Origin: Nemertoderma westbladi
Lineage: Eukaryota > Animalia > Xenacoelomorpha
Reading direction: 5' to 3'
Length of the DNA stretch: 64,000 nt
Assembly (NCBI GenBank): GCA_032718475.1
Contig: JAUCBJ010002048.1
Span: 1 to 64,000, forward strand
Shown piece by piece: positions 6,660 through 52,529 of the stretch; position 1 is the stretch's first letter; every line of letters starts with the position of its first letter. Below the pieces are notes generated by a model that worked only from the letters and a program-made list of their open reading frames with translations, searched no databases and was not told the DNA's origin. The translations under genes were made by a program, and so were the position numbers.

Positions 6660-8093
6660 AGGTTTTGACACTATGCAAAATCCGAGCACAGAGTTAGAAG
6701 CGCATTGGATAGGCGAACATTTCTTGCAGTGAAAGTATTTCCATACCTGTTATAGTTTTTGAGATAGTCAGACATGAGTAGCTAAAATTTGATTTTTTTT
6801 TGGTGAAGTCTTATTTCACCGGTACCTATCATCCGAAATATGGATTGTGATATATCGTTAGATGCGGGTCCACTATCTGTACATTCACATTTTTTCAAGA
6901 ATAAAATTCGATCAAGAGTTTTCGAAATATTTTCGAATTACCGGAAGCAGACTTTGGACGACTATATCTCCGGTACCGGTAGGCCTATTGAGTCGAAATT
7001 TTTTTTAATCTACTTGAACACTCCAGTGAATATTTTTTAGTTTGAAAGTTTTGCCCCAAAATGCTCAGAAGTAATTTGGAAAAAACTGATCATTTCGCGA
7101 TCATGATCTTTTGACCCCCTAGAATTTAACTTTTTTATGGTCAAATTTTGGCTACCCCCCCTAATTCGAGGGTGTGGAATCTTTTTGTAATGTTAAGGTT
7201 TTTCATACGGTGAACTCACATGACTTATGGTCTTCGAAATAAAACCGAAAACATGATCATTCCTGATCATGGCCTGATCAAATCACTTTTTGAAAATTTC
7301 GAAATGCTCAAAAGTTGCCCCTTCTTAATAGAAGTCGATTAGTAAAAAAAAAATCGGGGGTCTCAAACAAAGTTTTCGAGAAAATCGGGAAAAACCAAAA
7401 AACATGATCTTTTATGATCAGGAAGCTGATCTCGAGAACCGGTTACCGATCGAGCCACTTTTTTTTAATCAACTCCGAATAGACCATTGAACATTTCTTA
7501 CAATGAATGTTTATTAAAAAAATGCTTAGAGTCGATTTTAAATATACTGATCTTTTCGCGATCATGATCTTGAGTTTTGACCCACTGGACTTGAAACTTT
7601 TTTTATGCCCAAATTTTGGCTACCTCCCATAATTCGAGGGTGAGGAATCTTTTTGTGGTGTAAGTATAAGTTTTTCCATACAGTGAACTCCCAGGACTTG
7701 ATCTTTGAAAAAAAACCGAAAACACGATCTTTTCTGATCGCGGCCTGATCAAATCGCTTTTTGTAAATTTCGAAATGCTCAAAAGTGGCCCCTTCACCAT
7801 AGAAGTCGATTCGTAAAAAAAAAATCGGGGGTCTCAAACAAAGTTTTCGAGAAAATTCTAAAAAACTGAAAAACACGATCTTTAATGATCAGGTATCAGA
7901 TCTCGAGAACCGGTTGTTCGATTGAGCCAATTTTTATTTAATCGACTCAGGGCAGTGTTCTGAACGTTTCCTACAGTAATTGTTTATATCCAAAATGCTT
8001 AGTTACGATTTTACGAAGTCCGATCTTTGCGCGATCATGATCTTGCATTTTGATCAGGAAGAATTCACTTTTTTTAAATCTTTTAACGGGAAT
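6660..8093. mobile_element. Non-autonomous repeat with ~465-bp internal tandem units, left part; interrupted by the BEL/Pao insertion
   Basis: Units with 'CGCGATCATGATCTT' at ~7096, ~7557 and ~8030; the third unit resumes at 26387. Confidence 0.6.
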
Positions 8094-10248
8094 TGTTACG
8101 GTATATGGCGCTGTATCCACATATATTAGTCCGTTATACTGTACGCAATATTAGTCCGTTATACTGTATGTAATATTAGTCCGTTGTGCAGCATAATATT
8201 TTAGATAAGGCATAATAGCGCAGTGATATTTAGATAGGGAAACCAAAACGCCCATATATTTTGAATCCATCCATTTTGTATAATATGTAGCCCTACCTAC
8301 GTAATTTTGTATTAGGATATATGTAGATAGTTCCAGGGTAGCAAGTTTAGTCGGACCCTGGATTTCGTGCTTGCTGATATTAGCTTCAATAGGGCTAGCA
8401 TATAGGGACGCTGTCCTGGCCATTCAGCAGCCAGGGACATGATCCATTACGATATATGGTAATAATTTGAGGTTTGGGCGGCAATAGGGCTACAATCCGG
8501 CCTCCTTATTGGACTAACTGCTTCCAGGTTGGTCTAATGCTAGCGCGGACTGGAGAGCCAATAGGAGAGCGATTGAGTCACCCTATTGCATCACCCCATC
8601 CGGATCACCTATAAATTGGCGGCTTGCCGGTAGAGCTGTACAACAACCCTATACCTTACAATCCACACCCTTATATTTTAGCGTATTTCTGCAATTTGCT
8701 AAATTTTGATTAATTTCTTAAGATGATTTGCTAGTGCGATTATTCTTGATTGTGTTTCTCAATTAATCCCATCGATTACTGCTAATTACAACTGGAACTA
8801 TGATTTCTACCTTTTGTTAATGGTTCTATGTGATTCCTTTCTACGCAATAATCCTAAGGGATTTCTGAGACTGTCAGACTTTGTGATTTGCATGCGCCGC
8901 TACGGTAGCTATTAGCATAATGGAGGGCTAAGGTGCCAGTGGGCGGTGGGCACATCGGGGGGTTGAGCGACTAAGGGAGAGCGGAGGATTCAAAGGCGGG
9001 CAACGCTGGCGGGGGGTCACCGTTGCGGTCGGGCAGTTCACGCTGTGGTATGCAGACCATTCGCCGGTACGGTAATTAAGGGGCTGATGATCCAGGTTTC
9101 GTCTCTATTTAGTATTAGGGGGGCAGGAATCAGGTTAGTTAGGAGTCCTATATGTACCCGGGAGAGGCCTGCACGTATCACAACGTGGAGTGTGAAGTAC
9201 GAATAGTGAGTCGCACAACTGTGGGCTATACAGTAGTTAACTGCATAATTGCGAACTGTGATTGCTGACGCTGATTGGTGTGTTATTGAAGTGTGCCTAC
9301 GATTGTGAATGTTTAGGTAGGTGCCCCCTTTCTTTGATTGATTTCTATTTCTTAGTTACAACAATTAGTTACTGATTAGGTCAAAGTAATACGGCAATTT
9401 AGGCTATTACTAGCGAAACCTGTTGCGTAATAAATTAGAATTACGCATTCTGGAACTCTTAGTAATTAGTACGCTGTTACATATTTGTGACTGTAATTGA
9501 TTAGTAAAAAATTAAGAATTAGTATGCAGCATAGCGGAGAGTAGCTAAGGTAATAATTAGAGTACTGTAAACTATTCACGCTGAGCGGTTATTTGCATTG
9601 GCGGGCAATCAGCTAGATCGCACTATTCGGTACACACAACACGCTAGTAATTTGCTGGCCTAAAGCCAGCTGCAGGCAAGTTTAGACCCAGAGCGGAACT
9701 ATCCACGTAGAGAAAAATACTGTACCATTTTGATTATTTTAAATATTCTCGCATTCACACATTACGATAGGGAACCCCCAGTATTCGCGATTAGAAAAGG
9801 CGTAGGCAATAGCGTGCTTTAATAGTGATAGAATTAGGCGTAAGAATACTCTGAGTGCAAAGCCTCTCGCACTCGTCTTAAGTAAGCTTAGGGAGCTGAC
9901 TCGGGTTTATTGTTTTGGTTATTCCCGCGTGGCTCATAGATTCGAACAGTTAGCTCTCTATCGAGCAATCGGTAGAGAAAGGAACAAGCAATTTTGCAGG
10001 AGCTGTGTAAATTTAGTAAATTATATTAGCGGACGGCAGATAAGCGCCATCTAACGGTAAGTAGCGGTTTGTATTTAGCAACCCTTACAATTTAGCAATA
10101 TCACGCTCCTGATCCCCTTTACTTAACAGTAGAGCAGTCTTTGTGTCTTATTGGTTAGGCGAGAACTTATTAGGTTGGCAGAGGAGTATACGGGTATTTG
10201 TCTGTTCAACAGTTCTGCTGTTAGTATAGAGGTCGCGGTTGTTTATCA
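8094..10248 (+). repeat. 5' LTR (2155 bp)
   Basis: TGTTACGG...GTTTATCA; matches 24276-26381 except ~4 substitutions seen by eye and two indels (13 bp and net 36 bp); TATAAA at ~8611; short tandem repeat at 8122-8185. Confidence 0.95.
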
Positions 10249-10260
10249 GTGATACGTGCA
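10249..10260 (+). promoter_or_regulatory. Putative self-priming primer-binding site (complementary to LTR 9170-9181 and 25339-25350)
   Basis: GTGATACGTGCA directly abuts the LTR end, lacks the tRNA-type TGG start, and is the exact reverse complement of TGCACGTATCAC in the LTR. Confidence 0.7.
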
Positions 10261-11438
10261 TTGGCTGTAGGCAGTAGCGTACAGTAAATAGAGTATTCTT
10301 AGGCTGATTAGTAGTATCACAGTATTAAGTAATAAATTGGAGCACGTGATCGTCTGCTGTAGGCTATAGGCTAGCGTACAGTAAGACATTGAGTATATTC
10401 TTTTAGGCTGTTAGTTTAGATTACTGTATTCACTGGCTGCGTACAATAGTACAGTAGTACATTAGGCTGATTGCTGTTACTGCGTACGGTAGAAGGACAT
10501 TTGTTTGCCGTACCACACACAGTATCAATTAGGCTGTTAGGTTGGTGTACTGTTTTACTTACTGTACTGCATACAGTGGATGTACGGTAGTGCGTTTTGC
10601 TAATTGCGAATACAGCAGTTCCTTAGGCCTTAGGGCAAACAGTAATTAGTAAGTTTTTTGAAAATTTTAGCTAGGTTTGCGAGAATTCAGTTTCGGTCAA
10701 AATTATTTGTAAAATTCTAGAGTTTTGTACCGGTATGTTAGGTAACCGCTTAGTTATTTTATACCATCTGGAGATACATGGCAAGACGGAACTTCTGAGT
10801 TTGGGGTTCGTGTGGGTCTGCGGGTTCGGTTTGCAATCAGCGAAGGGCCTGAATCTTTGGACGCGGACGTGGAATCTCACAGCAAACAAGGTTAGTTGTT
10901 CTGTTGGCACCATTGTGTTTGTGGAAGCAGTAAAAATTACCGGTTGTTTAACTGCGAAGCTGAACTCAATTTATTAGTTAGGATATTTAGGTTTAGCCGG
11001 CCATGGTTTTTTTGAATCGCTCAAGTTAGAGAGAGAGTTAGAGAGAGTCGCAACCCGAAGATGTAGCCACGCGCTAGTGGATACATATAATATTTGAAAC
11101 TAAAATTACGTTGATTAGAGCTATATATATATAAAATTAGAAATATTCGGGCGGCAAGTATATTTTGAATATTTTGTATTAGATTCAGAGTTATTTTGTG
11201 CTATACCGGTATTTAATGCTATATAATAGCTATATAATAATATTTTTGTTTAAATATTGTGCTAGTATTTGCTATAACTATATACCCCATTAAATTCACA
11301 ATATTGCATTGCGAATTTATTTGACATTTGGACCAACTGATTATTTGACAAATAATTTGACCGTATTTCGGTTAAATTATAATCATATCTCGAACCTTTG
11401 CGAGATATTTTTGCCGGAAGGCAAACATTATTTAGACT

Positions 11439-14400
11439 ATGAGTGTCTCAGACAAGGAGGCACTAGAGGACAGCTATGAGATGGCGGCTGGACCGCCGAC
11501 TGACGATAGCGTCAATATTACTGTTGACGACAATGCCGACTATGACGACGCAGCGAGCGACGCTGACGTAAGTGAACAGGAGGACGAGACAGTGACTAGT
11601 GAGGAAGAACAACAACCTCAAGTAATAGTATTAGGATCCCCTACCGCTACTGTAAGGAAGGACTGTACAGCAGCCCGGACAGAGGTGAGTGATAGGGAGG
11701 GTAGTGTAGCAGAAGCGAGAGCCCGGAGCCCGGTTTCCAGACCTGTGGGTATGGTAAGTGCCGTGGTCCCGACGGCTGTAAGGAGTACCCGTAGTTCCCG
11801 AAATAATCCTTCAAGTCCACCGAGTGTAAGTCAGGTAAGTGATAGAGAGTTCGACACTGCGATAAAGAAGAAACTTCGCGCGCACGCCGGACATATAACT
11901 TGGACGGCGGACAAGGTAAGGAAGATGTTAGCTGACTCAGCGAACATCGGGAGGGTAGAGTTAGCAGAGATTAGAAGAGGATATAACTCAGCGTTATTCA
12001 AGCAGACGGAGGAGCTTGCAGTCCTAGCGAAGAAGGCAGTAGAGTCTCAGTCGAGCGACGTGGCGACGAGGATTTACGATAGGGTTTTGGCAGCCCTGTT
12101 GGAGCACCGCGAGTTATCGGAGCGATTCCGACGAGTTAGGACGGAGAACTGGCTGCTATGGGCATCCCAAGCGCAGGCGACTCAAGTGAGTGACGCAGAG
12201 TTAAGAGACTTAGTGGAGCGAGAAGAGATCCAGGATAAAGAAGAGCGCCGTTATCAGAGGGAAGTTACTAGCTGGCTGATGCAGAATGGAGTGGTGGTAC
12301 CGGGTCAGGTACTACCGACGACGGAGAACATCCAACAGAGGACGTTGACTCCACCCGACGACGCATCCAGAGACAGTGGCGATTCCCAGGTTAGTCACGC
12401 GCGAGGTAAGGTTATATGTGCTAGATCCCTTGTTTCGCACAACTCGGCGGAGGAGAGAAGACGCCGACTGGACGAACAGCAGGCGGAAGTTTTGCGTGCA
12501 TCGGAAGCGCGGAAGGAAGCCGAGCGGGAACGGGAGCGAACACGTAAGTTAGACGCGAAGTTGCGCGAATTGGAAGATAAAGGTAAGAGTGAGCGAGCGG
12601 AACGCGTGCAGAAGGAACGTGAACTTCAACTTGAACGCGAACGCAAGGAACGTGAACTCGAACTTGAACGCGAATGCAAGGAACGCGAACTCGAACTTGA
12701 ACGCGAGCAGAAAGAACGCGAACTCCAGCTCGAACGCGAACGCAAGGAACGCGAACTCCAGCTCGAACGCGAACAGAAGAAATGCGAACTCGAACTTGAA
12801 CGCGAACGCAAGGAACGCGAACTCGAGATCGAGAAGGAGCGACGGGCGTTGTATGAAGAGAAGGCGCGTGTGGAAGAAGAGGGCGCAGCGAGACGAGCGA
12901 GGGAAGAAGAAGAACGTAAACTGGCGCAGTTGGAAAGTGCGAGATTAAGTTTAGAGAGCGAAGAACGGACTAGGAAGGCGAACGAAATCGCCGAGAAGGG
13001 GATGCGAATGATCGAAGAATGTGGGGCGAGTGTAGGGACAGAGTTGCGAGAACTGTTCGCACTGCAGAAGGCCGAACAGGAAGCGAGAACTCCGGCTATA
13101 CGCGAGTCGACGACGACCAGAATTCCTATACCCGGTCCAGCTATTACGAGTACACGGATCGCTAAACCGTTCTCTACATATCGCACGCCAGTTGGTATTA
13201 GTGCTTCACCTATCGCCCAGGATCCACGTCATCGGAACACCGCACCACTATACACCGAACGAGAGAATGAAGAATTTAGAGAAGAAACTCCGACGGGACG
13301 AGTATTTGGCGAACCGAACCCGCGGGTTTGGAATACGCGGACGGAGCGCCGACCCAGTTCGACGGAGAACTTCCGGGTTAAACCGGAAGAGGGATCATAT
13401 GAGAGACAGCGGATTACTCAGATAGAGCCGACTATACAACAGAACCCTAGCCAGGAATTTATTACGAGGGATGAGTTAAGTGCTAGTTTAGCGCAAGCTA
13501 TATCGCCGCACATCCAACCTATAACGGACATGCTTAGCAACCTACGGTTAAAGGAAGCAGCCCAGGTAAGAAGTAATTCTAATCCTAGCAGGCCTGAGTT
13601 AGACAAAGTCCAGCCTAGTCAACGAGTACGCATATCGGAGGAGACTATACCACATAGACCTCAGGTAAGGACGCCTGTCCCGAATATTCATAATCCCAAT
13701 TTCGAAAATTCGGCCGAGAAATTTATACAAGATGCTTGGGTCAGGGCCTCGGCGCGCAAACCATCGCGAGCGCTAAGGACTGACACAGAGTCAAGCGATG
13801 AAGAGGAAGAAATGAGACGTCAGAAGTCCCGAAACTATAAGGAAAGAAGGACCGACGCGGAGCAGGTAAGTTGGAACCACCGGGAAAGGACCAGACTTAA
13901 CAACCCTGCGGAACTAAACCATTTGTTAACCCGCAACGACGCAACCCTTAGGGACATAGGTAAGTTTGCTGCTAGGCAAGGACTGCCGACGCAACAACCC
14001 CAGAAGTTTATGGGTAACCATAAGCATTGGAGGACCTTCAAAACCTATGTCGACGAGCAGCTAACCAACAGCACCTTTACTCCCAACGAGAAGTTCAACT
14101 ATTTGCTTCAGATGCTCCATCGAGAACCTAGAGCCATTGCTGATAACTTCGTCGGCAATGAAAGAGCATTCGAGTTAGCGATGAAGACGCTTAGTGACAT
14201 CTACGGGAATAAAACCAAGATGGCGCAGTCGATAGTAGAAGACTTGGGTAAGGGCGGAAGGATTACAACTCCGTTAGAGCTGTTGAACTTAGCGAACGCT
14301 ATTTCGAACGCATTGGACATCTTGAGGACGGTGAATCTACCTCATCATGGTGATCACGCCGAAGTTTTAAAGAGCGTAATAAGACGTCTAAACATGCGTT

Positions 14401-15101
14401 ATCGACAGAAATGGCGCAAATTAGAAAATAAGTTGGAGGGTCAAGGTAAGGTGTTGACACTTCAGCATATTCATGACATGATAGCCACAGACGCAGTAGC
14501 AGAGATGAAATCAAACTTCTCAGAGGAGAATATGAGGGAGTCTAAGCCTGTTACCGGTAAGTCTATGGTAAGTTTTGACGATGACAGGACCACTGTGACA
14601 TTTAACTCAGTAGACAGATATAATTCGAGTACCCTAGCCTTTAGATCAGACTCGCGAGTATGGTCAGGTGAGCGGTTAGATAGACCTAGGTTAAAGCAAC
14701 AGGAGTTGCCGGATGGATTTGTAGGTTGCCAATACTGTTTACTAAAGGAGGTAAGATCTGACGATCATAAGTTAGATAGTTGCAGACGGTTCAAAGAATT
14801 AAATTCGGAACAGAGAAGAGTTCAAGTGCGGACGTTGGACACCTGTTGGGCATGTCTTGCGCCAGGCCATGTACGGCGGCAGTGCCCGAACAGCAAGGAC
14901 GGATGCATGGAATGCGGCAGACTACATCACAAGTTGCTACATGCGGATTTCCACACCCCAATGGACCGTTACTTACAGCGAAATCCTCACAGGAAGGGGA
15001 GCAAAGAACCCATATCGATAAGGAGGAATACGTATACCGGCATTCAGGATGATGGTTACCAACCAGGTTCATCGGATGAGGATGGCGAGTCGAGCGCGTG
15101 A
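11439..15101 (+). CDS. gag: BEL/Pao Gag (1220 aa): acidic N-terminus, coiled-coil 11-aa repeats, DUF1759-like region, three zinc motifs
   Basis: 'PQKFMGN..HW.TF...EKFNYL' region; CQYC..H..C, CWACLAPGHVRRQC, CMECGRLHHKLLH. Confidence 0.9.
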   Translation: MSVSDKEALEDSYEMAAGPPTDDSVNITVDDNADYDDAASDADVSEQEDETVTSEEEQQPQVIVLGSPTATVRKDCTAARTEVSDREGSVAEARARSPVSRPVGMVSAVVPTAVRSTRSSRNNPSSPPSVSQVSDREFDTAIKKKLRAHAGHITWTADKVRKMLADSANIGRVELAEIRRGYNSALFKQTEELAVLAKKAVESQSSDVATRIYDRVLAALLEHRELSERFRRVRTENWLLWASQAQATQVSDAELRDLVEREEIQDKEERRYQREVTSWLMQNGVVVPGQVLPTTENIQQRTLTPPDDASRDSGDSQVSHARGKVICARSLVSHNSAEERRRRLDEQQAEVLRASEARKEAERERERTRKLDAKLRELEDKGKSERAERVQKERELQLERERKERELELERECKERELELEREQKERELQLERERKERELQLEREQKKCELELERERKERELEIEKERRALYEEKARVEEEGAARRAREEEERKLAQLESARLSLESEERTRKANEIAEKGMRMIEECGASVGTELRELFALQKAEQEARTPAIRESTTTRIPIPGPAITSTRIAKPFSTYRTPVGISASPIAQDPRHRNTAPLYTERENEEFREETPTGRVFGEPNPRVWNTRTERRPSSTENFRVKPEEGSYERQRITQIEPTIQQNPSQEFITRDELSASLAQAISPHIQPITDMLSNLRLKEAAQVRSNSNPSRPELDKVQPSQRVRISEETIPHRPQVRTPVPNIHNPNFENSAEKFIQDAWVRASARKPSRALRTDTESSDEEEEMRRQKSRNYKERRTDAEQVSWNHRERTRLNNPAELNHLLTRNDATLRDIGKFAARQGLPTQQPQKFMGNHKHWRTFKTYVDEQLTNSTFTPNEKFNYLLQMLHREPRAIADNFVGNERAFELAMKTLSDIYGNKTKMAQSIVEDLGKGGRITTPLELLNLANAISNALDILRTVNLPHHGDHAEVLKSVIRRLNMRYRQKWRKLENKLEGQGKVLTLQHIHDMIATDAVAEMKSNFSEENMRESKPVTGKSMVSFDDDRTTVTFNSVDRYNSSTLAFRSDSRVWSGERLDRPRLKQQELPDGFVGCQYCLLKEVRSDDHKLDSCRRFKELNSEQRRVQVRTLDTCWACLAPGHVRRQCPNSKDGCMECGRLHHKLLHADFHTPMDRYLQRNPHRKGSKEPISIRRNTYTGIQDDGYQPGSSDEDGESSA

Positions 15102-15137
15102 GAAGTGACCTGCCAAGGTTTCACCGCGGATAGTTAA

Positions 15138-17693
15138 CCGACCAGCGCGCGGACGTATTTATCATCGGCCACGTCGGAAATATTTAGCGTGATTCCGGTG
15201 AAACTCACTGGCGATAAGGGATCGAAGAGAATATATGTGATGTTGGACACTGCGTCCACATTATCCTATATCGACGAGGAAGTGGCGAGAGCCGTTTCTA
15301 GCTTCCAGGACGCCGAGGAGATCCAAATAGAGTTGAAGTCTATGCACGGGGTAGGAGACCTCAAGGGACACAGAATTTCGGTAGAACTAGATTCCCTACT
15401 TCCGAGAGACCAACATACTCGACAAGAACGGAAAGCTTTGCCATTGGACGGATTTAAGTGTCTAGCTATGAAGGGATTCGGCAGGCAGTTAGGTAAGGTG
15501 CCGCCGATGAGTCCCATAGCACAGGAGTATTTTGACAAGCTCAGGATACCCAGACACCAGGTAGGTTATAGGAATGTTTCTATGTTGATTGGTGCAGAGC
15601 AGCTGATCGCACACCAGATATGGGAAACGAGACCAGCTGAGCCGCATGTCAATGGACCACATGCCCATAGGACTATATTAGGTTGGTATACACGAGTACC
15701 CATGTCTTATGAGTTTACAGGTGGCGACAAGCCAATGAACAGATACGATGAATTACGGCCTATAACTCAACCACCGTTAGTAGAACCACCAGACATAGAC
15801 GAGTTTAGGAGAACCTGTATTGACCACTATAGTGACTTTAGCGAGTCGGACGAGGAGTTGATTCCCGATAATGTTAGGTTGTCGGAACCACTTCATAACG
15901 ACCGGACAGATAGTGAACCCGAGGACTACTGTTATCAGACCCGTGGGTCTGGTTCAGCGGCCCACGCTACCTATTTGACTAACGTTTTGACTTATACTGA
16001 CATAGTGGAGGGTCAGGTGGCTAAATATCGAGACCTAGACATTTTCCAATACAGTGAGGAGGAGCTACAGAAGGAATTGATACGCCAGGACCTCGAGACA
16101 GGAGCCAGAACCGTCGAATGGCTGGATAGGGACGCAATGGAACCCGGTGGATATGACCTAGCCATGTCTACTAATGAGAAACGGTCGCTGGAGATGATGG
16201 AAGACACCATACGTCTACTACCGACTGGACATTTTGAAGTTGGAATGTTGTGGCGTCGACAACCACCTAAGTTGGAGAACAACTATAACTTAGCCTTGAA
16301 AAGATTAAACGGAGTAAGGGCTCGGTTGTTAAGGAATCCGAACATTAGGGAGAAGTATTGCGCCCAGATCAACAACTATTTCGCTAAGGGATTTGCTGGG
16401 AAGGTAGAGGTCCCTGACTTAGTGACAGACCAGACTTATTACCTTCCACACCAATATGTGACTCACCCTGACAAGCCAGACAAAGTCCGAGTAGTCAACG
16501 ACTGCGCAGCAGTCTATAGAGGTATGTCCCTGAATTCAGAGTTGATGGACGGACCCAACCTGAATAATTATTTGATTGGAATACTGTTGCGTTTTAGACA
16601 GCGGCGATTCGCATTTACTTGTGACATCGAGGCGATGTTCCACCAGGTAAGAGCCTGTAAGGCAGACCAGGATAGCCTTCGCTTTCTCTGGTACGAGAAT
16701 GAAGACCTATCCGGCCCAGTGGTTAAATACCAGATGTACGTTAGGATATTTGGCGCCCGCGATAGTCCAAACGGCACGCTGTTTGTTCTAAAGAAAACGG
16801 CAACAGCCCAGATTGGTAAGTATCCAGTAGAGGTAATCGAGTCCATCTTGAGAAACTTCTATATGGACGACGGATTGGTGTCCAAGGACACAGAGGAACA
16901 AGCCATAGAAGTGGCTCACGGCCTGCAAGAGTGCTTGGCTACAGGGGGTTTTCCTCTGACCAAGTTCACTACAAACTCGGAGGCCCTATTAGAGTCGTTC
17001 CCGGTAAAAGATCGCGGGAGCGGAGACATTGAATTGGGGGTAGAACCAATCCCCATGGCGCGAGTACTGGGACTCGCTTGGAATCCGAACTCAGATAAGT
17101 TCCAGGTAAGAGTTAGATTTGAGCCCAGTAGCCCAGACAAAGTTTTGACAAAGAGGATTTGCTTATCGACATTAAGTAGACTATTTGACCCGATGAACTT
17201 TATCAGTCCGGTTATATTACAGGCACGAGCGTGCATGAGGAAAATTTGGTTGTCCGACGTAGAGTGGGACGAACCAATATCTCCTATACATGCAAAGCAG
17301 TGGAGGGAGTGGGAAGCTGAGTTGCATCTATTGAAAAATATAGACGTACCCCGTTCCTACTTTCCGAATCAGCTGGTATTCCCAGCTGATCTCGAACTCC
17401 ATCTGTTTAGTGACGCAAGTGACACCGGCTTTGGTATGGTAGCCTACCTTCGCCGAGAGGTAAGTCAGGACAAGTTTGAGACGGCTTTTGTGACTTCTAG
17501 ATCAAAGACAATGCCGGTCAAATACATGACTGTCCCTCGTGCAGAGTTACAGGCAGCTGTAGTTTCAGTCGAGGTAAGTAAGCAAATAACAGAGGAGTTA
17601 GACACGACATTGACCTTATTCTATTGGACGGACGCATCCTTGGTGTTAGTATACATTGCGGCCGACAATATCCAATATCGAAACTTCCATTAG
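15138..17693 (+). pseudogene. pol: Pol part 1: aspartic protease, RT and truncated Pao RNase H
   Basis: LDTAS protease, 'KVRVVNDC', 'DIEAMFHQV', YMDD, 'LHLFSDAS', 'VPRAELQAA', 'YWTDA'; same frame as gag but separated by two stops; ends before the expected NPAD..SRG motif. Confidence 0.9.
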
Positions 17694-19321
17694 TTAGCGG
17701 ACAACCGTCGCTGGCATTAGAGTCATGCAGTATTTATGACAAATTACTAAATTCGTCTGCCTCTTGGCTGACAATTTGTAAAAGAACTGCGTGGTTAAGC
17801 CGATACGTTTCGTACCTTTGTATAAAACATTTGAAACATTTGAGAGAACCATCGAGCGCTAATAGTGAGCGAATTCAGAAATTGAAACAACCTCTGACAG
17901 AGGATGAGATTGATCAAGCGGAATTAAAGCATTTGAAACATTATCAAATGTGTGCCTTCCCAAAAGAATTCCATCTATTATCGGCTCAACGACCAGTTCT
18001 CTATAAACCCCTTAGAAAATGGAGTCCATTAATCCATAAGGGTTTAATTTGTCATAGATCGAGAATCCAGACTGTCGACATAAACTCACAGTTTCGGTTC
18101 CCAGTGATAATCCCTAGTCACCCAATAGAATTGCAAAGAGCGATTCTATGGGATATACACAAGAGGTTGCATCACGCGGGAAGGTTACACTGTTTGTCGG
18201 CAGCGAGACAGCGATTCATTCTATTGCAGCCAAGCAGGGCAGTAGGCACTATGTACGACGCCTGTCTGGTTTGCAAGAGAGTGAACGCCAGAGTATTGGA
18301 ACAGGAGATGGCTGAACTCCCGGAAGCGAGAGTGCAGGCATATGACCCACCCTTTACGAACACAGGGGTGGATTGTTTTGGTCCGATTGAAGCAAAGAGT
18401 GGACGGCTGACCCACAAGCGATGGGGTCTGCTACTGACATGCATGGCTAGTAGAGCCATACACATTGAGCGTGTGGCAGACATGTCGACCAAATCTCTGC
18501 TCCTGGCCTTGAAGAGATTTATGGCCAGGAGAGGACTAGTAAAGGCGTTCTACTCCGATAAGGGTACAAACTTTGTCAGAGGGAATAGCGAGTTGAACGC
18601 GGCTCATAAAGCGGCACAGAATAAGGAAATTTCTGCAGCACTTTTGCCGCAAAGAGTAGAGTGGAGATTTAATACTCCAGAAAGTCCTTGGAGAGGAGGA
18701 AGTTGGGAGCGTTTAGTTCGCTCTGTAAAGCAGGCCATTGCCAAAACATTGCCTGTAAACAAACAACTTACCGACGACGAACTGGTCACAGCTTTCATTG
18801 AAATCGAGCATACCCTAAACTCGAGGCCGATAGCTATGTTGCCAGACGGTGTTGCATTAACGCCGAATCATTTGCTAATGCAGAGTCCAGCATTTCTTGT
18901 GCCGGCATCAGAACCCATTAGTGCCGACCTATATAGTCGTAAAGGCTGGAAAGTAACACAATTTGTCGCGTACACATTCTGGGAATATTGGCGGGAATAC
19001 TATCTTCCCACCATATCTACCAGAACAAAGTGGTACAAAACGGTTCGGAGTCTCCAAAGGGGAGATTACGTACTGATAACCGAGCCGATTGTCAAGAGAA
19101 AGTACTGGGAGACGGGAGTGATCTTGCACACACACCCAGACGTGCAAAACATAGTGCGCACAGTCACTGTGAAAATTATGTGCAAGTGTCCGCACCCAAA
19201 AAAGTGTAAAACTAATGGTTTACACACCTTGGACCGACCGGTCCAAGATATCGTGTTATTAGAGGAGACACGTATCGAGACGGGAGATTATAATTTGTCT
19301 CCTGCCTCAAAACAGAATTAG
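17690..19321 (+). pseudogene. pol: Pol part 2: integrase (HHCC + DDE), out of frame after an internal deletion
   Basis: H..LHHAG...C..C; GVDCFGP, SDKGTNF, GGSWERLV; 'FWEYWREYYL' C-terminal BEL/Pao motif. Confidence 0.9.
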
Positions 19322-20092
19322 TGTTGGACGCAACTCACTTCGTATGCATTCCTCGTATGCAAATACAAGGAAATGCATAGGAGCGGGGTTGTGGTGACTT
19401 GCGTTGAGTTTTGTCTGGTGGGTATCAAAACGAAATTTTATTTTCAAAAATTTTGGAAAATTTAAAATTTTAAAAATTAGAAGTGAACCCAAGACAATTC
19501 CAGACGCTGTGTATAGACGCGTTTTAGAATTCGTCTATAGATATACAGTAATTTGAAAAGTCGTGAAGCCTGGAAAATAGCATTTAGAAACCATGGTGAC
19601 GGCTATATTACGTAGGAGTGTAAATTGAGTTTAGCAACTTCCACAGATTGGTGCCAACAGTGCAACTAAGGTGCTAAAGGTTAGTAGCACCAGGGGCGTA
19701 CATGGACCCCACTCAGTAGTTTGCAGGATGTGTGATGTTCGATTATCAAACCTGTGGGTTTGGTATAGTCGGGTATTGTGGCTATGGTCCTTTCTAACTA
19801 CTGTAGTTTAGTACGAGTGATGGGAGTAGTTTGGGCATCAAAAAGTGAGTTGGTCACGGCCAGTTTATCTCCAAAGTTTTGCGCTATGCATGGGAATAGG
19901 TTAGAGGATAGTTAGTTAGGAAGAGACGGGATCTAGAGAGTCGAACCTGAACTGCTGGAAGGCGGGGGGGGGGGGGGGGGGGGGGTTCGGGAGGTCTGTC
20001 TTTCGGCGACATCTAACTGATTTACCCACAGTGTAATTGGTTACGTAACGGCACTTATTGGGATATATATATATGTATATACGCGAGGCATA

Positions 20093-23000
20093 ATGGAGAA
20101 GGATATTAGAGCGCAACCGCGCAGAGGATTTACTGCCAGAGAGGAGGCGGAGCTACCATTCGCGCGACCAGGATGTAAAGACTCTAACGTTTACTACCAT
20201 GGGCGGTCCGTGATGGAGCTAAACGGAAAATATAAACCGACTTATGATAAGGAATTACGGAGGGAAAGAATGAGAGCGTTGGGGGACCGGATGGAAGTTT
20301 TGCGGAGAGAGTATCGCACGCGGTATCCCTACGACTTCGCTTTGGACGTATGTGACATTAGTGCAGACCCGGATGAGGAGATCGCACGACTGTACCATAT
20401 GAATATGTATTTACGACACGAAGAACCTCTACCTGCAATCCGAGATCAGTTCGACGGAATGCATCTATACCGGAGGACTCGAGGCGAGGATCAGGAGACG
20501 CCGAAAGTCTTCAGCGTGTACAAGCTGTTCTACAAGTGTGGTGAATGCATGAATAAGCAAGACGTGGCGATTCCCGATCGACTAGACGAGCAACATCCGG
20601 AACCGATATTAACGCGATGTCCAGCTCACCAGTTCCTTAGATACAACGAGGGAGGTTACCCGATGAGCAACCCGATGATCAGTATCGACTTCAGCGGAAA
20701 GCGACCTCCGAGACCCATTACGCCGACCGTTACGACATTAGATCCGTATACGGAGATTAAACCCTGTTCGACACCCAGTTTGATAGAGACGGCAGCGGCC
20801 ATTTCGCTGTACCGAGCCTACAAGGATCTAGAGGCGCGGCGCGAAGCGGCGCGGGACTCGGGTACCAAACCCGCGGGTTTGGAGCTCTCGAGTCCCTGGA
20901 CTGCGTTTACTTCACCTCACCGAGCGAGAAGCCTCACGCCTGAGCATCAGGACGACATAGACGCGTTGCGGCAGGAGGAGCGAGCGGCGAAGGCGAAAGA
21001 GTTATTTGAGAATCGGATAGCGGAGTATAATAAGACCGCGGATAGACATCAAGAGGAGACGAGGAGAGTGACCGGATTTGTTCCACAGGTCGTATCTCAA
21101 CCCCGACCGGTGTATTATTCCGACGGCACCGAACCTGCGATATTAGTAGATCATCCGGAGTCGCGAGAAGCGATACGATTCTTGCCGATGGTAAGAATGG
21201 CGGATCATTGGAACGTTGACTGTCTACGGGAAGTTTTATGCGCGAAGTTCTTGCGTGATGTCCCAATGCAGATCACAGATTACGACACATTGGATAAGAT
21301 TGGAGCTCCGGGGAAGGAGAGTAAATTATTTGGATGGTTGGATAAGTACATCAAGGTATGGGTCGCGGTGGCTACATTCCCAGACGACGAGGAGGTAGAC
21401 CAGACGTGGCTGAGGAGGAAGGGTTCTTATACCCGATATGATGACCACAAGGCTATCGAGCGCATGTGGACCCCATCAGACGAGATTCAGCGTCAGTGGA
21501 GGAAAACGGAGGAATCACTGCAGGATTGGAGGGTGATGTTCTACGACAATGAAGGAGGGTCCCATCAAGAATGTTTGACTAGCAAGTGTATTCAAATTCG
21601 TGCAGCCGATGGTGTGACTCATGTGTTTATGCGTGTGAGGGCGGATCGAGAGAGACCGGAGCCCATCATAACGACACAATATCGGAAGGGGAAGGATCCT
21701 AGGGAGCAGATTTTGGAGGTATGCAGGCGAGGAGGTATGCACGGAGCGGAGCGTATCGACGCCAGGATGCTACCCAAGAAAGTTAGAGAGGCTATTCTCA
21801 ACCAAGATTACGTCAAGGTGGGATCGGGAGTCCAGAGCGATTTGGAGAGCGACTTCAACGCCATGACTGATCTGGAAGATAGATTGCCGAGACCGTTTGT
21901 CGACACCAAGCTATTGTTGCTATGGGCACAGGATATTGGAATTTATAGGGAGTATCCCAACTCTGCCAAGACTGGTATGGGCTTTATAGCACACTTGTTG
22001 TATAATTGGGACTTTAAGTTAAAGACGCAGAAGAAGTACGAGGAGGCGTATGGCGAATACAACACGCCACCGGGAGCGGAGTTCAAATCCCACTTCAAGC
22101 GGCAAGCGTTAGTGTATTGGAACATTTGCGCGCCACCCCGTGCGTCGCTACAATATTATTTGGTGCTTGAGTCGAACACGGTGACTTGTTTATTAGCGGA
22201 TATCGTTGCGCGAGTTTTGAAGCGTCATCCATTGGTATTCGGAGGAGATCAATACGTTCGCTCGAAAGGGGGAATCCAATCCGACGTGATGAAGCGTTTC
22301 TTAACCCCGTTCTTCAACCAATCGTTAGAGAATACGTCGATGGTTAGGAGAGGATTAGCGATATTCCAAGGAGTATATCGACAGAACATCGGAGATTTGG
22401 GAGACCGACCGTCGATGGAGTATCCGACGCCAGAAGCTTTGGAGAAGTGGTTCGGGAATCAAACCCGCGGGTTTCGTACTCCCTTCCACTCGGAGGCTGA
22501 TAGACCTGTTAAGGAGGGCTGGCCGGAGACGTTAGTAGAGGTGTTCGGAGTAGATCTTCCGGTGGAGAAGACATATCCGAAACGAACGCGGGAGGAAATA
22601 TTGGAGATAGAGGACAAGGGCGAGGATGTTTACTTTGTTCCGGATCGACAACCGTTGACCGGAGAGGACGACATCGTATTAGACATTGGGAAGGAAGGAA
22701 GTGCGAAACCGATTGGAGACCTCATATACGAGAGGGCCTGGTTTCCACAAGCGCGTAGGTGCAAATTGTGCGGCAGCACAAGGCACAATCTAAAGTCGTG
22801 CGACGCGGTAGTAGAGGCGGCGCATAAGGTCTGTCGTTGGTGTAATGAGACCGACCATTCGTTTCACACGTGCACCGTCTTCATTTCTCAATGTGGATAT
22901 TGTGGGGTAAAGGGACATCGTAGCGCGAGATGTCAGCTGCGAGATGATTCCTTTCAAAACCATAGCGCTAACCTACTTCGGGAGATGTTAGATAAGTGGG

Positions 23001-23800
23001 AGAGTGTGGCTGATTACCATATTCAAGCGCAGATGCGTTGGTTACCATTTAAGGCGGGATATGGATTTTGGGCGGTAGACCCATCGCATGTTGCGTACGA
23101 GCCATATCTACAATCGCTACCACAATATCAGGAACTCATCCTAACTGCTCAAGACCTTCCACAGAACACTGGAGTTATCGTAGTCCGAGAATACTTCAGA
23201 CAATTGAATATGGATAACAAGTACACCTGGAACTTCGTTGCTATTTGCGATCGCATCACGAAGGGTGTATTTACGGAGACTAGAAAAGTGGTACGCGCGC
23301 GAGGTGAATGGAGGATGGCGGCTATACAATACCGCAACGAATTCTTGTTGACTCATGTGCCAGTGGGTTCATTGACCGCTGAGAGGATACAGGGACAGAG
23401 GATCGCAGCGACCACAGCGACGACCGCTGGAGCTCAAGGCTCGCGGAAAGAACCAGGAGGAGGGGTCCACGACAAGCGTCAAGTCAAGGACGACCACTAT
23501 CACTCTATTATAGAAGCACAGAGGTTGCAGCGCAAGGCGCAGGGAGCGTCGGAAAAAGCGCGTGTGCAACTGCATAAGGAAGAGTTGGCGGAAGCGACCA
23601 CGGGAGCACGACAATTGGGACGAGGCCGAGGAAGAAGCACGAGCCGGGAATCTGTCGGGGCTCAGGGAACATCGTCGCCGGTTCCGGGGAGTGATGCCTC
23701 ACGGATGCCGTCAACGGAGTCGACTGGAGGACGACTGGTGTATCTGGGGAGGGGGCGAAAGAGAGGAGCGAGCCCAAAGAACCCAGGAGCGGGTCGATAA
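20093..23800 (+). CDS. Accessory ORF3 (1235 aa): DnaQ/DEDDy 3'-5' exonuclease-like domain + 3 CCHC zinc knuckles + RG-rich tail
   Basis: FYDNEG (ExoI), CIQI, LPKKVREAIL.....KVGSGVQSD (ExoII), FVDTK, W...P....QYYLVLE (ExoIII-like); CKLCGSTRHNLKSC, CRWCNETDHSFHTC, CGYCGVKGHRSARC. Confidence 0.8.
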   Translation: MEKDIRAQPRRGFTAREEAELPFARPGCKDSNVYYHGRSVMELNGKYKPTYDKELRRERMRALGDRMEVLRREYRTRYPYDFALDVCDISADPDEEIARLYHMNMYLRHEEPLPAIRDQFDGMHLYRRTRGEDQETPKVFSVYKLFYKCGECMNKQDVAIPDRLDEQHPEPILTRCPAHQFLRYNEGGYPMSNPMISIDFSGKRPPRPITPTVTTLDPYTEIKPCSTPSLIETAAAISLYRAYKDLEARREAARDSGTKPAGLELSSPWTAFTSPHRARSLTPEHQDDIDALRQEERAAKAKELFENRIAEYNKTADRHQEETRRVTGFVPQVVSQPRPVYYSDGTEPAILVDHPESREAIRFLPMVRMADHWNVDCLREVLCAKFLRDVPMQITDYDTLDKIGAPGKESKLFGWLDKYIKVWVAVATFPDDEEVDQTWLRRKGSYTRYDDHKAIERMWTPSDEIQRQWRKTEESLQDWRVMFYDNEGGSHQECLTSKCIQIRAADGVTHVFMRVRADRERPEPIITTQYRKGKDPREQILEVCRRGGMHGAERIDARMLPKKVREAILNQDYVKVGSGVQSDLESDFNAMTDLEDRLPRPFVDTKLLLLWAQDIGIYREYPNSAKTGMGFIAHLLYNWDFKLKTQKKYEEAYGEYNTPPGAEFKSHFKRQALVYWNICAPPRASLQYYLVLESNTVTCLLADIVARVLKRHPLVFGGDQYVRSKGGIQSDVMKRFLTPFFNQSLENTSMVRRGLAIFQGVYRQNIGDLGDRPSMEYPTPEALEKWFGNQTRGFRTPFHSEADRPVKEGWPETLVEVFGVDLPVEKTYPKRTREEILEIEDKGEDVYFVPDRQPLTGEDDIVLDIGKEGSAKPIGDLIYERAWFPQARRCKLCGSTRHNLKSCDAVVEAAHKVCRWCNETDHSFHTCTVFISQCGYCGVKGHRSARCQLRDDSFQNHSANLLREMLDKWESVADYHIQAQMRWLPFKAGYGFWAVDPSHVAYEPYLQSLPQYQELILTAQDLPQNTGVIVVREYFRQLNMDNKYTWNFVAICDRITKGVFTETRKVVRARGEWRMAAIQYRNEFLLTHVPVGSLTAERIQGQRIAATTATTAGAQGSRKEPGGGVHDKRQVKDDHYHSIIEAQRLQRKAQGASEKARVQLHKEELAEATTGARQLGRGRGRSTSRESVGAQGTSSPVPGSDASRMPSTESTGGRLVYLGRGRKRGASPKNPGAGR

Positions 23801-24275
23801 TACATCATAGCACAGGGCGACAGACTCTAGATATATACATCATCGTCGCTCTGATGTATATTGTAGCATTTAGAAATCTTCGACTAGACTCATATACACT
23901 AGTTGAGCTGTTTTGAATTTATATTATGAGAGAGGCGAAGGAAGTGATTGGGGAGACAAACCTGCGGGTTTGGCTTACTCCTTTCACTTGCCCTAGCAAA
24001 TTTTTTTATATATATTTGATTTTGTATGTAGTAATCATTATGTAGTACGAACGAGAAACAATATTTGTAAATTTAATTTGAATGAGAGAGATAATATTTG
24101 TAAATTTAATTTGTATGCAATTCATTATGCAATATCTATAGCAATATTTTGTAAATAGTAGGATTTATAGTATCAAGTATTTAGATTATTTGGAAGAAAT
24201 TTATTTTGTTTGTATACATCACCTTATACTCTTCTACAGTTGGAGGGAAACATTATATGATTTCCCTTGGAGCGG

Positions 24276-26381
24276 TGTTACGGTATATGGCGCTGTATCC
24301 ACATATATTAGTCCGTTATACTGTACGCAATATTAGTCCGTTATACTGTATGTAATATTAGTCCGTTGTGCAGCATAATATTTTAGATAAGGCATAATAG
24401 CGCAGTGATATTTAGATAGGGAAACCAAAACGCCCATATATTTTGAATCCATCCATTTTGTATAATATGTAGCCCTACCTACGTAATTTTGTATTAGGAT
24501 ATATGTAGATAGTTCCAGGGTAGCAAGTTTAGTCGGACCCTGGATTTCGTGCTTGCTGATATTAGCTTCAATAGGGCTAGCATATAGGGACGCTGTCCTG
24601 GCCATTCAGCAGCCAGGGACATGATCCATTACCATATATGGTAATAATTTGAGGTTTGGGCGGCAATAGGGCTACAATCCGGCCCCCTTATTGGACTAAC
24701 TGCTTCCAGGTTGGTCTAATGCTAGCGCGGACTGGAGAGCCAATAGGAGAGCGATTGAGTCACCCTATTGCATCACCCCATCCGGATCACCTATAAATTG
24801 GCGGCTTGCCGGTAGAGCTGTACAACAACCCTATACCTTACAATCCACACCCTTATATTTTAGCGTATTTCTGCAATTTGCTAAATTTTGATTAATTTCT
24901 TAAGATGATTTGCTAGTGCGATTATTCTTGATTGTGTTTCTCAATTAATCCCATCGATTACTGCTAATTACAACTGGAACTATGATTTCTACCTTTTGTT
25001 AATGGTTCTATGTGATTCCTTTCTACGCAATAATCCTAAGGGATTTCTGAGACTGTCAGACTTTGTGATTTGCATGCGCCGCTACGGTAGCTATTAGCAT
25101 AATGGAGGGCTAAGGTGCCAGTGGGCGGTGGTTGAGCGACTAAGGGAGAGCGGAGGATTCAAAGGCGGGCAACGCTGGCGGGGGGTCACCGTTGCGGTCG
25201 GGCAGTTCACGCTGTGGTATGCAGACCATTCGCCGGTACGGTAATTAAGGGGCTGATGATCCAGGTTTCGTCTCTATTTAGTATTAGGGGGGCAGGAATC
25301 AGGTTAGTTAGGAGTCCTATATGTACCCGGGAGAGGCCTGCACGTATCACAACGTGGAGTGTGAAGTACGAATAGTGAGTCGCACAACTGTGGGCTATAC
25401 AGTAGTTAACTGCATAATTGCGAACTGTGATTGCTGACGCTGATTGGTGTGTTATTGAAGTGTGCCTACGATTGTGAATGTTTAGGTAGGTGCCCCCTTT
25501 CTTTGATTGATTTCTATTTCTTAGTTACAACAATTAGTTACTGATTAGGTCAAAGTAATACGGCAATTTAGGCTATTACTAGCGAAACCTGTTGCGTAAT
25601 AAATTAGAATTACGCATTCTGGAACTCTTAGTAATTAGTACGCTGTTACATATTTGTGACTGTGATTGATTAGTAAAAAATTAAGAATTAGTACGCAGCA
25701 TAGCGGAGAGTAGCTAAGGTAATAATTAGAGTACTGTAAACTATTCACGCTGAGCGGTTATTTGCATTGGCGGGCAATCAGCTAGATCGCACTATTCGGT
25801 ACACACAACACGCTAGTAATTTGCTGGCCTAAAGCCAGCTGCAGGCAAGTTTAGACCCAGAGCGGAACTATCCACGTAGAGAAAAATACTGTACCATTTT
25901 GATTATTTTAAATATTCTCGCATTCACACATTACGATAGGGAACCCCCAGTATTCGCGATTAGAAAAGGCGTAGGCAATAGCGTGCTTTAATAGTGATAG
26001 AATTAGGCGTAAGAATACTCTGAGTGCAAAGCCTCTCGCACTCGTCTTAAGTAAGCTTAGGGAGCTGACTCGGGTTTATTGTTTTGGTTATTCCCGCGTG
26101 GCTCATAGATTCGAACAGTTAGCTCTCTATCGAGCAATCGGTAGAGAAAGGAACAAGCAATTTTGCAGGAGCTGTGTAAATTTAGTAAATTATATTAGCG
26201 GACGGCAGATAAGCGCCATCTAACGGTAAGTAGCGGTTTGTATTTAGCAACCCTTACAATTTAGCAATCGTCTTTGTGTCTTATTGGTTAGGCGAGAACT
26301 TATTAGGTTGGCAGAGGAGTATACGGGTATTTGTCTGTTCAACAGTTCTGCTGTTAGTATAGAGGTCGCGGTTGTTTATCA
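24276..26381 (+). repeat. 3' LTR (2106 bp)
   Basis: Direct repeat of 8094-10248; preceded by a short purine-rich GGAGCGG and a hairpin AGGGAAACAT-TAT-ATGATTTCCCT. Confidence 0.95.
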
Positions 26382-26386
26382 GGAAT

Positions 26387-26865
26387 CATGGCTAATGTGG
26401 GGTCGCTGAATCTTTTTGTAATGTTAAGTTTTTCGATTGGGGCAAGCCTTGAGTGTCCGAATCCTGATCAAAACTGATCTTTGCTGATCATGGTCAAGAT
26501 CATGATCTGATCGCTCCAAAAAAGTCTTTTTTAAGGTAAATCCATATGCTGCCTATCGATTGGCGCCGGTTCCAAGTCCGTAGCATTAGCGGTTCTAGAG
26601 ATCGACGCATAGCAACGAGGTTGCTAGGGAAGCGGACTTTTTGACTCAAATTGGCCCTAGACGGAGAACCGTAGACATTTGAAACGTAATGTATATGGGA
26701 AAAAGTCTTCTGGATAAATTTTTTTTTTGGGGGGGGGGGGGGTCTAGGAACATCCTATTGTTGGTTTTCGCTTAGTTTCTGAGAAAAGCTTCTCCCCCAA
26801 ATTCCAAACTCCCCCAATCTATAAAGGCGTGCGCAATGACTAGTTCCGTGGCCGAGCACGGAATT
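26387..26865. mobile_element. Right part of the interrupted non-autonomous repeat; Helentron/HINE-like terminal hairpin
   Basis: Continues the ~465-bp unit; ends ACTAG-TTCCGTG-gccgag-CACGGAA-TT; the matching other end was not located. Confidence 0.4.

Positions 26866-30568: not shown

Positions 30569-52529
<21,961 letters not shown>

Follow-up and report, generated by a model that had tools for sequence, protein, structure and literature searches.

A predicted DEDDy-type nuclease with CCHC knuckles in the env position of a BEL/Pao retroelement of Nemertoderma westbladi

Genes for 3'-5' exonucleases of the DEDDy type are carried as cargo by bdelloid rotifer retrotransposons with long terminal repeats (LTRs) and by Terminons (PMC5408684, PMC6431247, PMC5718144, PMC6338049). 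In the rotifer elements Juno1/2 and Vesta2/5 the gene is a third open reading frame (ORF3) in the env position, free of membrane and coiled-coil features, and it is shared with Athena/Terminons (Rodriguez et al. 2017, PMC5408684). A DEDDy domain is also found in Dada DNA transposons, there inserted in the DDE transposase, with a canonical DEDD site and a proposed action on DNA ends (PMC3706591). BEL/Pao elements (Belpaoviridae), as described, are 4.2-10 kb long with LTRs of 0.2-1.2 kb, an 18-nt primer-binding site (PBS) for tRNA-Arg or tRNA-Gly, and a third gene that is env-like (PMC8742986). The subject of this paper is a BEL/Pao element of 18,288 bp (18.3 kb, LTR to LTR) on contig JAUCBJ010002048.1 (assembly GCA_032718475.1) of Nemertoderma westbladi, whose third gene, also called ORF3 here, specifies a predicted nuclease followed by three CCHC zinc knuckles. 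The window is the whole 64,000-nt stretch analysed, positions 1 to 64,000 of that contig.

A search of the full-text literature found no DEDDy cargo in BEL/Pao elements (Repbase entries and subscription papers lie beyond its scope, and an unindexed record is possible); the word 'exonuclease' is absent from the main text of PMC3118150 and of PMC8556966. The closest mobile precedent is the DEDDy ORF3 of rotifer Juno/Vesta, and the closest solved architecture is that of Trypanosoma RNase D (TbRND; 7C42/7C45), in which a DEDDy exonuclease is likewise followed by tandem CCHC fingers (PMC7797062). The rotifer proteins and the ORF3 described here are further alike in having one acidic residue swapped between Asp and Glu, and in having a function that is so far putative (PMC5408684). 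They differ in clade (Juno, Vesta, TelKA and Mag in rotifers, BEL/Pao here) and in motif (DEED there, DEDE here), so that by motif, in a comparison made by description only, the 1235-aa ORF3 falls outside the Juno/Vesta group; the account of the rotifer elements mentions a Cys-His-Cys motif in two families and no triple CCHC module (PMC5408684).

ORF3 is open throughout and occupies the env slot, after the integrase-bearing ORF (end, 19321) and before the 3' LTR (start, 24276). An initial sequence-only reading of the window had recognized this ORF, the absence of an evident transmembrane helix, a set of WRN-exo/EXD/Mut-7 motifs and the three knuckles, all of which are found in place. The parts of the gene are:

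20093..23800, + strand: ORF3, 1235 aa, intact
20537..20629, + strand: N-terminal C-x2-C-x23-C-x2-H, residues 149-179, possible zinc site
21458..22228, + strand: predicted 3'-5' exonuclease domain of DEDDy-like type (residues ~456-712), carrying an insertion of ~25 residues not seen in relatives
21545..21553, + strand: ExoI, D485-x-E487, in the favoured register
21839..21841, + strand: ExoII, D583, an invariant column of alignment A2
22157..22171, + strand: ExoIII, Y689-x3-E693, Glu replacing Asp
22760..22933, + strand: three CCHC zinc knuckles, C-x2-C-x4-H-x4-C, residues 890-947
22934..23140, + strand: family-specific helical module, residues ~948-1016, with an aromatic-Gly-Phe motif at its end
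23453..23797, + strand: basic low-complexity tail, residues 1121-1235

The nuclease motifs start at 21539 (FYDNEG), 21587 (CIQI), 21770 (LP..VR..I), 21815 (KVGSGV..D), 21899 (VDT), 22118 (W....P) and 22157 (YLVLE); the knuckles start at nt 22760, 22832 and 22892 (residues 890, 914 and 934). The hallmarks of an env protein are missing: the highest 19-residue hydropathy is 1.34 (no membrane helix), the N-terminus is charged, and Pfam finds no family either in the whole ORF or in its nuclease domain. For the N-terminal 455 residues, Pfam and further searches yielded neither family nor fold. The tail, previously called RG-rich, is indeed basic (19% R+K) but only mildly RG (4 RG dipeptides in residues 1121-1235). 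An in-frame deletion variant at 20238-20568 is present in sequencing runs X1, X3 and X6: 329 nt are skipped with 2 nt between (net 327), which removes about residues 49-159.

Residues ~456-712 are predicted to adopt a DnaQ-like DEDDy fold. In ESM Atlas, the features of residues 440-740 fall with DNA_pol_A_exo1 (3'-5' exonuclease) clusters at a score of 0.91 (25 of 30 matches), a score of 0.9 being reached by about 4-10% of shuffled proteins. Profile searches match EXD2 at E values of 2e-4, 9e-3 and 5e-6, the last with a profile built from the window's knuckle region and six whole relatives. An AlphaFold model of the domain from a 6-row alignment has medium confidence (pLDDT 57, pTM 0.56), places strands at 481-487, 499-503, 509-513 and 574-577, and ends in a long helix; its top Foldseek matches are EXD2 (E 2e-4) and Nibbler. 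This modelling, which the sequence-only reading had proposed as the check on its DEDDy assignment, thus returned a DnaQ-like fold as a prediction. The top VIA matches (Z 11.6-10.3; root-mean-square deviation (rmsd) 3.2-4.4; 157-187 residues aligned) are to apicoplast Pol, Nibbler, Pol I, EXD1, RNase D, NrnC-type enzymes and WRN, and among the 50 VIA matches listed all are DEDD nucleases or DNA polymerase chains, as judged by their titles. EXD2, Nibbler (Mut-7), EXD1 and WRN, which provide the best profile and Foldseek matches, have the IQI strand, the LP helix and the KVG...D pattern in common with ORF3; they are host proteins without CCHC triplets, with 7-14% structural identity, and no orthology is claimed. 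In a viral structure library, matches of this fold occur only at E>0.001. NCBIfam gave nothing relevant for 5 proteins, and a single-sequence search of the PDB gave no exonuclease match; its sole match, rotavirus VP4 (E 0.008), was judged to be chance, and profile matches to Roquin (E 0.55-0.8) were discarded as weak.

The resemblance to TbRND, which the sequence-only reading had not noted, extends to the order of the modules. Profile A1 matches TbRND (7C45) with E 3.8e-6, mostly through the knuckles and weakly through the nuclease part, and the fold match has Z 9.3, rmsd 4.0 and 178 residues aligned (rank 16 by VIA, 29 by Foldseek). TbRND is a cellular mitochondrial guide-RNA trimmer, a 3'-5' exoribonuclease with a canonical DEDD site and four CCHC fingers after a 28-residue linker; its RNA is bound by the fingers, each of the four being important for cleavage (PMC7797062). 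ORF3, in contrast, has three knuckles after a spacer of ~175 residues, an added helical module and Glu at ExoIII, and it extends far beyond these parts at both its N- and C-terminal ends. Because EXD2, Nibbler and Pol I outscore TbRND on the nuclease domain, the TbRND-like layout may be convergent. By analogy with TbRND, the substrate of ORF3 would be RNA. The reading preferred here, tentatively and as a possibility rather than a probability, is that ORF3 is an RNA-trimming enzyme acting on the element's own RNA, with finishing of the 3' end of the reverse transcriptase (RT) primer as its lead job.

ORF3 belongs to a family that Pfam and NCBIfam miss. A search with residues 440-989 against 1.84 billion representatives found 7 relatives with E values between 5e-8 and 8e-4; P0008-P0011 came from cluster members and from one more search, for 8 distinct relatives of 245-829 aa, none of them named. 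All have the knuckle module together with the nuclease domain or some part of it, with 19-30% identity to ORF3 (7 compared), and the helical module ending in aromatic-Gly-Phe is conserved after the knuckles; no exonuclease Pfam match was found in the 7 relatives scanned. P0002 and P0004 were found through their knuckles, and the nuclease domain is present in them as well. P0005 is degenerate in its nuclease part, and the P0007/9/10 cluster is without the domain end. A profile built only from relatives scores 75 bits on ORF3 residues 440-740, as against 11.5 for the best of 2000 shuffles, a partly circular comparison in that ORF3 had been the query. The tree of ORF3 and 7 relatives (P0005 excluded as degenerate; 249 columns) is star-like, with support of 22-44. 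Word-based homology searching with ORF3 (targets of 679-2162 aa) gave 0 matches, as did the search with alignment A1, which missed its own members too, so that both blanks carry little weight; with P0006, it returned only P0006 itself and P0011. Scans of viral contigs with ORF3, P0001 and P0006 found no locus, and a metagenome scan found only P0004's own contig. That contig (L001, 2486 bp) is the only relative DNA retrieved, and it holds just the gene. In it the ExoI motif lies upstream in another frame (L001:257-571, as against 546-2405), in a broken gene or through an assembly error.

The likely active site is predicted to consist of D485, E487, D583, Y689 and E693, a DEDE type. The ExoII residue D583 is invariant across the 6 rows of A2, and D-x-E at ExoI is retained in 6 of 8 relatives (one has N-x-E, another D-x-K). 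At ExoIII the canonical Y-x3-D is replaced by Y689-x3-E693, the Glu to which the sequence-only reading had drawn attention. Glu is also found in P0001 and P0006 (both Y-x3-E) and in P0011 (without the Tyr), Asp in P0002, P0003 and P0004, and 2 of the 8 relatives are unscorable (the assignments were partly read by eye); since relatives share it, the Glu is no decay peculiar to this copy. At one contig end in run X1 the eye finds Y-L-L-L-E-S, with Glu kept and specified by another codon. On its motifs, the ORF3 nuclease would be a DEDDy-fold variant rather than a canonical member.

ExoI can be read in two registers, one with D485-x-E487 as the motif, which needs the ~25-residue insertion, and the other with FYDNE on the preceding strand, which leaves no acidic pair. 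We hold the D485-x-E487 register with good confidence. It is given by 2 of 3 MAFFT modes and by 5 of 6 trimmed sets; the hairpin block that follows ExoI has its best score of the whole ORF at CIQI...VF, which the EXD2 segment from the profile match resembles, and the ExoI block is locally best at 480. (The initial verdict that ExoI is lost rested on one alignment and was downgraded after further alignments, block scores and profile search.) Several points nevertheless weigh against an active enzyme. One of the 3 MAFFT modes, the tool alignment and one of the 6 trimmed sets place FYDNE on the preceding strand, and the enzyme would then be dead. The N-half homolog-only profile is non-significant (E 0.07), the preceding-strand block is also best at residue 480, and the alignment behind the domain model was chosen in the favoured register and hence is not independent evidence for it; a longer, 607-aa model built in the rival register (pLDDT 40.5) is unusable and provides no like-for-like control. 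The last acidic residue is Glu and not Asp; a literature search for an Asp-to-Glu change at ExoIII found no paper, and in TbRND the ExoIII Asp binds the A-site metal, D230A leaving no more than trace activity (PMC7797062).

The ExoIII Glu, the ambiguity of ExoI and the N-x-E and D-x-K variants of two relatives favour a different reading, in which ORF3 is a weak or dead nuclease that serves as an RNA adaptor in the manner of Egalitarian (Egl) or EXD1, both of which are among the fold matches (Z 9.1 and 10.9, respectively), and binds repeated stem-loops through its nuclease-like domain and knuckles. The RNA stem-loops to which Egl binds include the I-factor signal, and an exonuclease-like domain contributes part of the binding (PMC6056234). 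The retention of D-x-E and D by most relatives at ~25% identity suggests metal binding, however, and we consider the adaptor reading rather doubtful, although the hairpins described below also bear on it.

Sequence variation among copies indicates that the protein is maintained. Contigs of four public runs, one of which may be the window's source, were aligned on ORF3. None of the runs recorded as RNA contains the stretch, and X4 is RNA only by conjecture. Over the whole ORF, 30 of 38 differences are synonymous as against 22-32% expected, for a naive ratio of about 0.1; these 38 are the ones that fall in ORF3 among 40 differences chosen by the tool from 247. Of the 37 differences listed for the nuclease domain, 31 are synonymous and the 6 replacements all come from one contig, which also has a 1-nt deletion; none of the 37 is in the five active-site codons, rare variants being unlisted. 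Six sites are common to both sets, and sites are not independent. The counts, which are not a formal dN/dS, point to purifying selection in the N-terminal region, the nuclease domain and the tail. Confinement of ORF3 to this copy and neutral evolution had been named in advance as grounds for dismissing it; other copies exist, and their differences are mostly synonymous. Fold, architecture and selection, taken jointly, we regard as close to certain; the function of ORF3 is much less sure.

The family appears highly repeated and diverse in its host (5145 contigs aligned in run X1), as might be expected of an element whose ORF3 is an active counter-defence nuclease, one that shortens or degrades the host's small RNAs or the precursors of these, or clears away fragments of element RNA that would feed silencing. 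Nibbler and Mut-7 act on the 3' ends of small RNAs, and Nibbler EXO domains rank second and third structurally, level with Pol I types at Z 11.3. The guide RNAs that TbRND trims are small (PMC7797062), and a silencing-related role was raised for the rotifer ORFs by Rodriguez et al. (PMC5408684). The case is made by analogy only, and a shared fold shows no function. Furthermore, mature piRNA 3' ends are methylated and resistant to such enzymes. Counter-defence is, in our estimation, unlikely without being far-fetched, on a par with the adaptor reading; both come close behind the preferred one.

That ORF3 is a mere passenger, whether a gene captured from the host or a mobile element nested here, and does nothing for the BEL element, we hold to be highly improbable. 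The sole relative contig retrieved is the gene alone, and the linkage of ORF3 to pol is seen in this copy, contigs of other copies being short. On the other hand, ORF3 lies inside LTRs that differ at 5 positions, no terminal repeats flank it, it has no introns, its G-rich strand skew is that of the rest of the element, a hairpin motif is common to it, gag and pol, and its copies show the synonymous bias.

The element that houses ORF3 is assigned to BEL/Pao on the strength of Pfam domains in gag, pol and the integrase part, in agreement with the sequence-only reading:

8089..8093, no strand: left copy of the 5-bp target-site duplication
8094..10248, + strand: 5' LTR, 2155 bp, TG...CA; differs from the 3' LTR by 5 mismatches and by two indels, of 13 and 36 nt
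11439..15101, + strand: gag ORF, 1220 aa, DUF1759 and zinc knuckles (Pfam)
15138..17693, + strand: pol piece 1, protease, RT (YMDD) and start of Peptidase_A17/RNase H; in gag's frame, after two stops
17582..19321, + strand: pol piece 2, in a different frame, integrase (H2C2, core, DUF5641; Pfam)
24276..26381, + strand: 3' LTR, 2106 bp
26382..26386, no strand: right copy of the target-site duplication

Gag matches DUF1759 and a knuckle, pol matches Peptidase_A17 (E 1.7e-39), and the integrase part matches Integrase_H2C2 and DUF5641. The TG...CA LTRs with their target-site duplication and the order gag, then protease-RT-RNase H-integrase with BEL-typical domains are those of Belpaoviridae, as is a third gene in the env slot (PMC8742986, PMC3118150). 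The element differs from those described in its 18.3-kb length, its 2.1-kb LTRs (about twice the upper size that ICTV gives), the nuclease-knuckle makeup of its ORF3 and the pairing of its PBS with the LTR. The LTRs are near-identical and the insertion is recent. Its pol is not intact: the frame changes near 17690, and the usual end motifs of RNase H are absent in all three frames. The young copy is probably non-autonomous by reason of this break (17582-17693), while its ORF3 is intact. Two stop codons separate gag from pol in the same frame (window positions 15099-15137) and are either lesions or a natural expression switch. Other peculiarities are three 25-nt tandem repeats in the 5' LTR (8123-8197), a run of 33-nt repeats in gag (12421-12969) that encodes a charged coiled-coil-like stretch, and an atypical polypurine tract, the purine run ahead of the 3' LTR (24241-24275) being short and interrupted. 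An Rfam scan of 8000-26500 gave no match.

The size of this genome, 18.3 kb compared with the typical 4.2-10 kb, could be taken to favour a role for ORF3 in proofreading reverse transcription or trimming cDNA ends, which would permit an unusually long genome, and the best-scoring structures include Pol I proofreading domains and WRN. But ORF3 is a separate gene with RNA-type knuckles and is not fused to RT, the length is accounted for by long LTRs, gag and ORF3 itself, and copies are diverse; the idea is very hard to credit. Proofreading was one of four roles that had been listed for ORF3, none of them shown, and it finds no support; of the others, primer trimming gains locus-specific support and RNA binding a candidate ligand, as follows.

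The preferred reading, primer finishing, was chosen as the lead job since it alone among the roles is backed by evidence at this locus, which comes from the primer site:

9170..9181, + strand: LTR 12-mer, candidate self-primer, exactly complementary to the 12 nt that immediately follow the 5' LTR
10249..10267, + strand: primer-binding region, with no TGG start, self-complementary to the LTR from +1
25339..25350, + strand: copy of the self-complementary 12-mer in the 3' LTR

All 12 nt pair from LTR+1, with 4 further pairs past a 2-nt bulge; none of 13,970 control internal positions reaches 12 nt, and 8e-5 matches are expected. The pairing qualifies as self-priming by the published standard of at least 10 bp within 0-5 nt of the LTR (PMC6317226). 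In form it resembles the Tf1 type, its PBS being complementary to part of the 5' LTR and beginning at the LTR boundary, as in Tf1 and Tj1, which are Ty3/gypsy or copia elements primed by the mRNA 5' end (PMC4600332, PMC6317226). Here, in contrast, the complementary segment is ~560 nt downstream of the LTR's only TATAAA, and that TATA-like site, at 8610, suggests that the 12-mer is not at the 5' end of the transcript. With the single TATAAA at 8610 and the single AATAAA at 9429, the 12-mer is probably inside R, about 250 nt ahead of the poly(A) signal in the 3' copy. The same region holds a 10-nt stretch (10256-10265), beginning 7 nt from the LTR and without TGG, that matches the 3' probe for tRNA-Gly given in PMC9262602, and it resembles a tRNA-Gly site split by 4 nt. 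A switch from tRNA priming to self-priming in the PBS region is possible, to judge from these letters. There are no tRNA genes within the window.

In the proposed mechanism, which takes Trypanosoma RNase D as its model, the knuckles would grip single-stranded RNA and pass its 3' end on to a two-metal site. The primer could be the element's own LTR segment, which lies within the predicted R and not at an RNA end, or it could be tRNA-Gly, whose last two bases would be unpaired in register; with either one, unpaired 3' nucleotides would have to be removed before extension by RT. A bolder version, which is speculative and quite improbable, is that the lineage moved from tRNA-Gly priming to internal priming by its own RNA, with its own knuckle-guided DEDE exoribonuclease cutting RNA back as far as the paired 12-mer and so exposing the 3' end of the primer; if it is true, there would be a route of retroelement priming that depends on a dedicated accessory nuclease. 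What tells against primer finishing is that the PBS-LTR pairing forms in RNA folds starting from 9100 or 9170 and is absent in the fold from 8640, near the TATA-like site, that RNase H alone performs the primer cleavage of the Tf1 type, that the sole tie of ORF3 to the primer site is their presence in the same element, and that none of the relatives is shown to lie in a retroelement. Self-priming of the Tf1 type, moreover, is by the mRNA 5' end plus cleavage (PMC4600332).

The second candidate substrate is a set of hairpins with YGYG loops, distributed along the element:

10813..10828, + strand: hairpin 1, leader; the weakest, outside its local minimum-energy fold
13316..13329, + strand: hairpin 2, in gag
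15937..15950, + strand: hairpin 3, in pol
19748..19761, + strand: hairpin 4, in the pol-ORF3 spacer
20867..20880, + strand: hairpin 5, in ORF3
22461..22474, + strand: hairpin 6, in ORF3
23958..23971, + strand: hairpin 7, in the 3' untranslated region

The closing C is at 10818, 13320, 15941, 19752, 20871, 22465 and 23962, respectively. The sense strand has seven C-YGYG-G hairpins where 0.15 are expected. The motif was defined on four copies; for the other three, outside the motif-defining region, the expectation is 0.024. Their spacing is 1.1-3.8 kb with all three codon phases represented, and no C-YGYG-G hairpin with a stem of at least 6 is found in 45.7 kb of flanking DNA. Among the four defining hairpins, three (z -2.4 to -3.9) but not the fourth have better folds than their shuffled versions. 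Pair counts exceed those of controls and 5 of 10 pairs have two-sided changes, in copies that were preselected for stems. The hairpins are candidate signals for packaging, localisation or ORF3 binding. With 4 of 7 in or beside ORF3, they are what an RNA adaptor might bind so as to localise, package or shield the 17-kb RNA; they are equally possible as sites for Gag-mediated packaging or for host proteins. The nucleocapsid of Rous sarcoma virus may bind a UGCG tetraloop, although two reviews make no mention of such a loop.

The DNA downstream of the element contains long simple repeats between window positions 27500 and 42400 (6-nt units at ~27600-29850, a 16-nt satellite from ~32920, and a 3-nt repeat at ~40800-42300). 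Beyond these are ORF remnants, at 44524-45664, 47342-49717, 50435-50866, 52734-53186, 57799-58599 and 63036-63548, which, reading by eye, we take to comprise pieces of THAP/P-element-like transposase, pieces of non-LTR retrotransposon RT, a fragment of a Ulp1-like protease and a mitochondrial-carrier-like exon.

In published descriptions of BEL/Pao elements, the slot for a third gene is env-like or empty. Nuclease cargo in that slot, familiar from rotifer elements, is now found in another LTR superfamily, with a TbRND-like knuckle architecture and a predicted DEDE site, and ORF3 defines an unannotated protein family. Two features are new here, a PBS that pairs exactly with a 12-mer of the element's own LTR and seven similar hairpins along the RNA. 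The question raised by the rotifer work, of what use a 3'-5' exonuclease is to a retrotransposon, becomes testable in this element because it offers two candidate substrates, a self-complementary primer segment and the seven hairpins.

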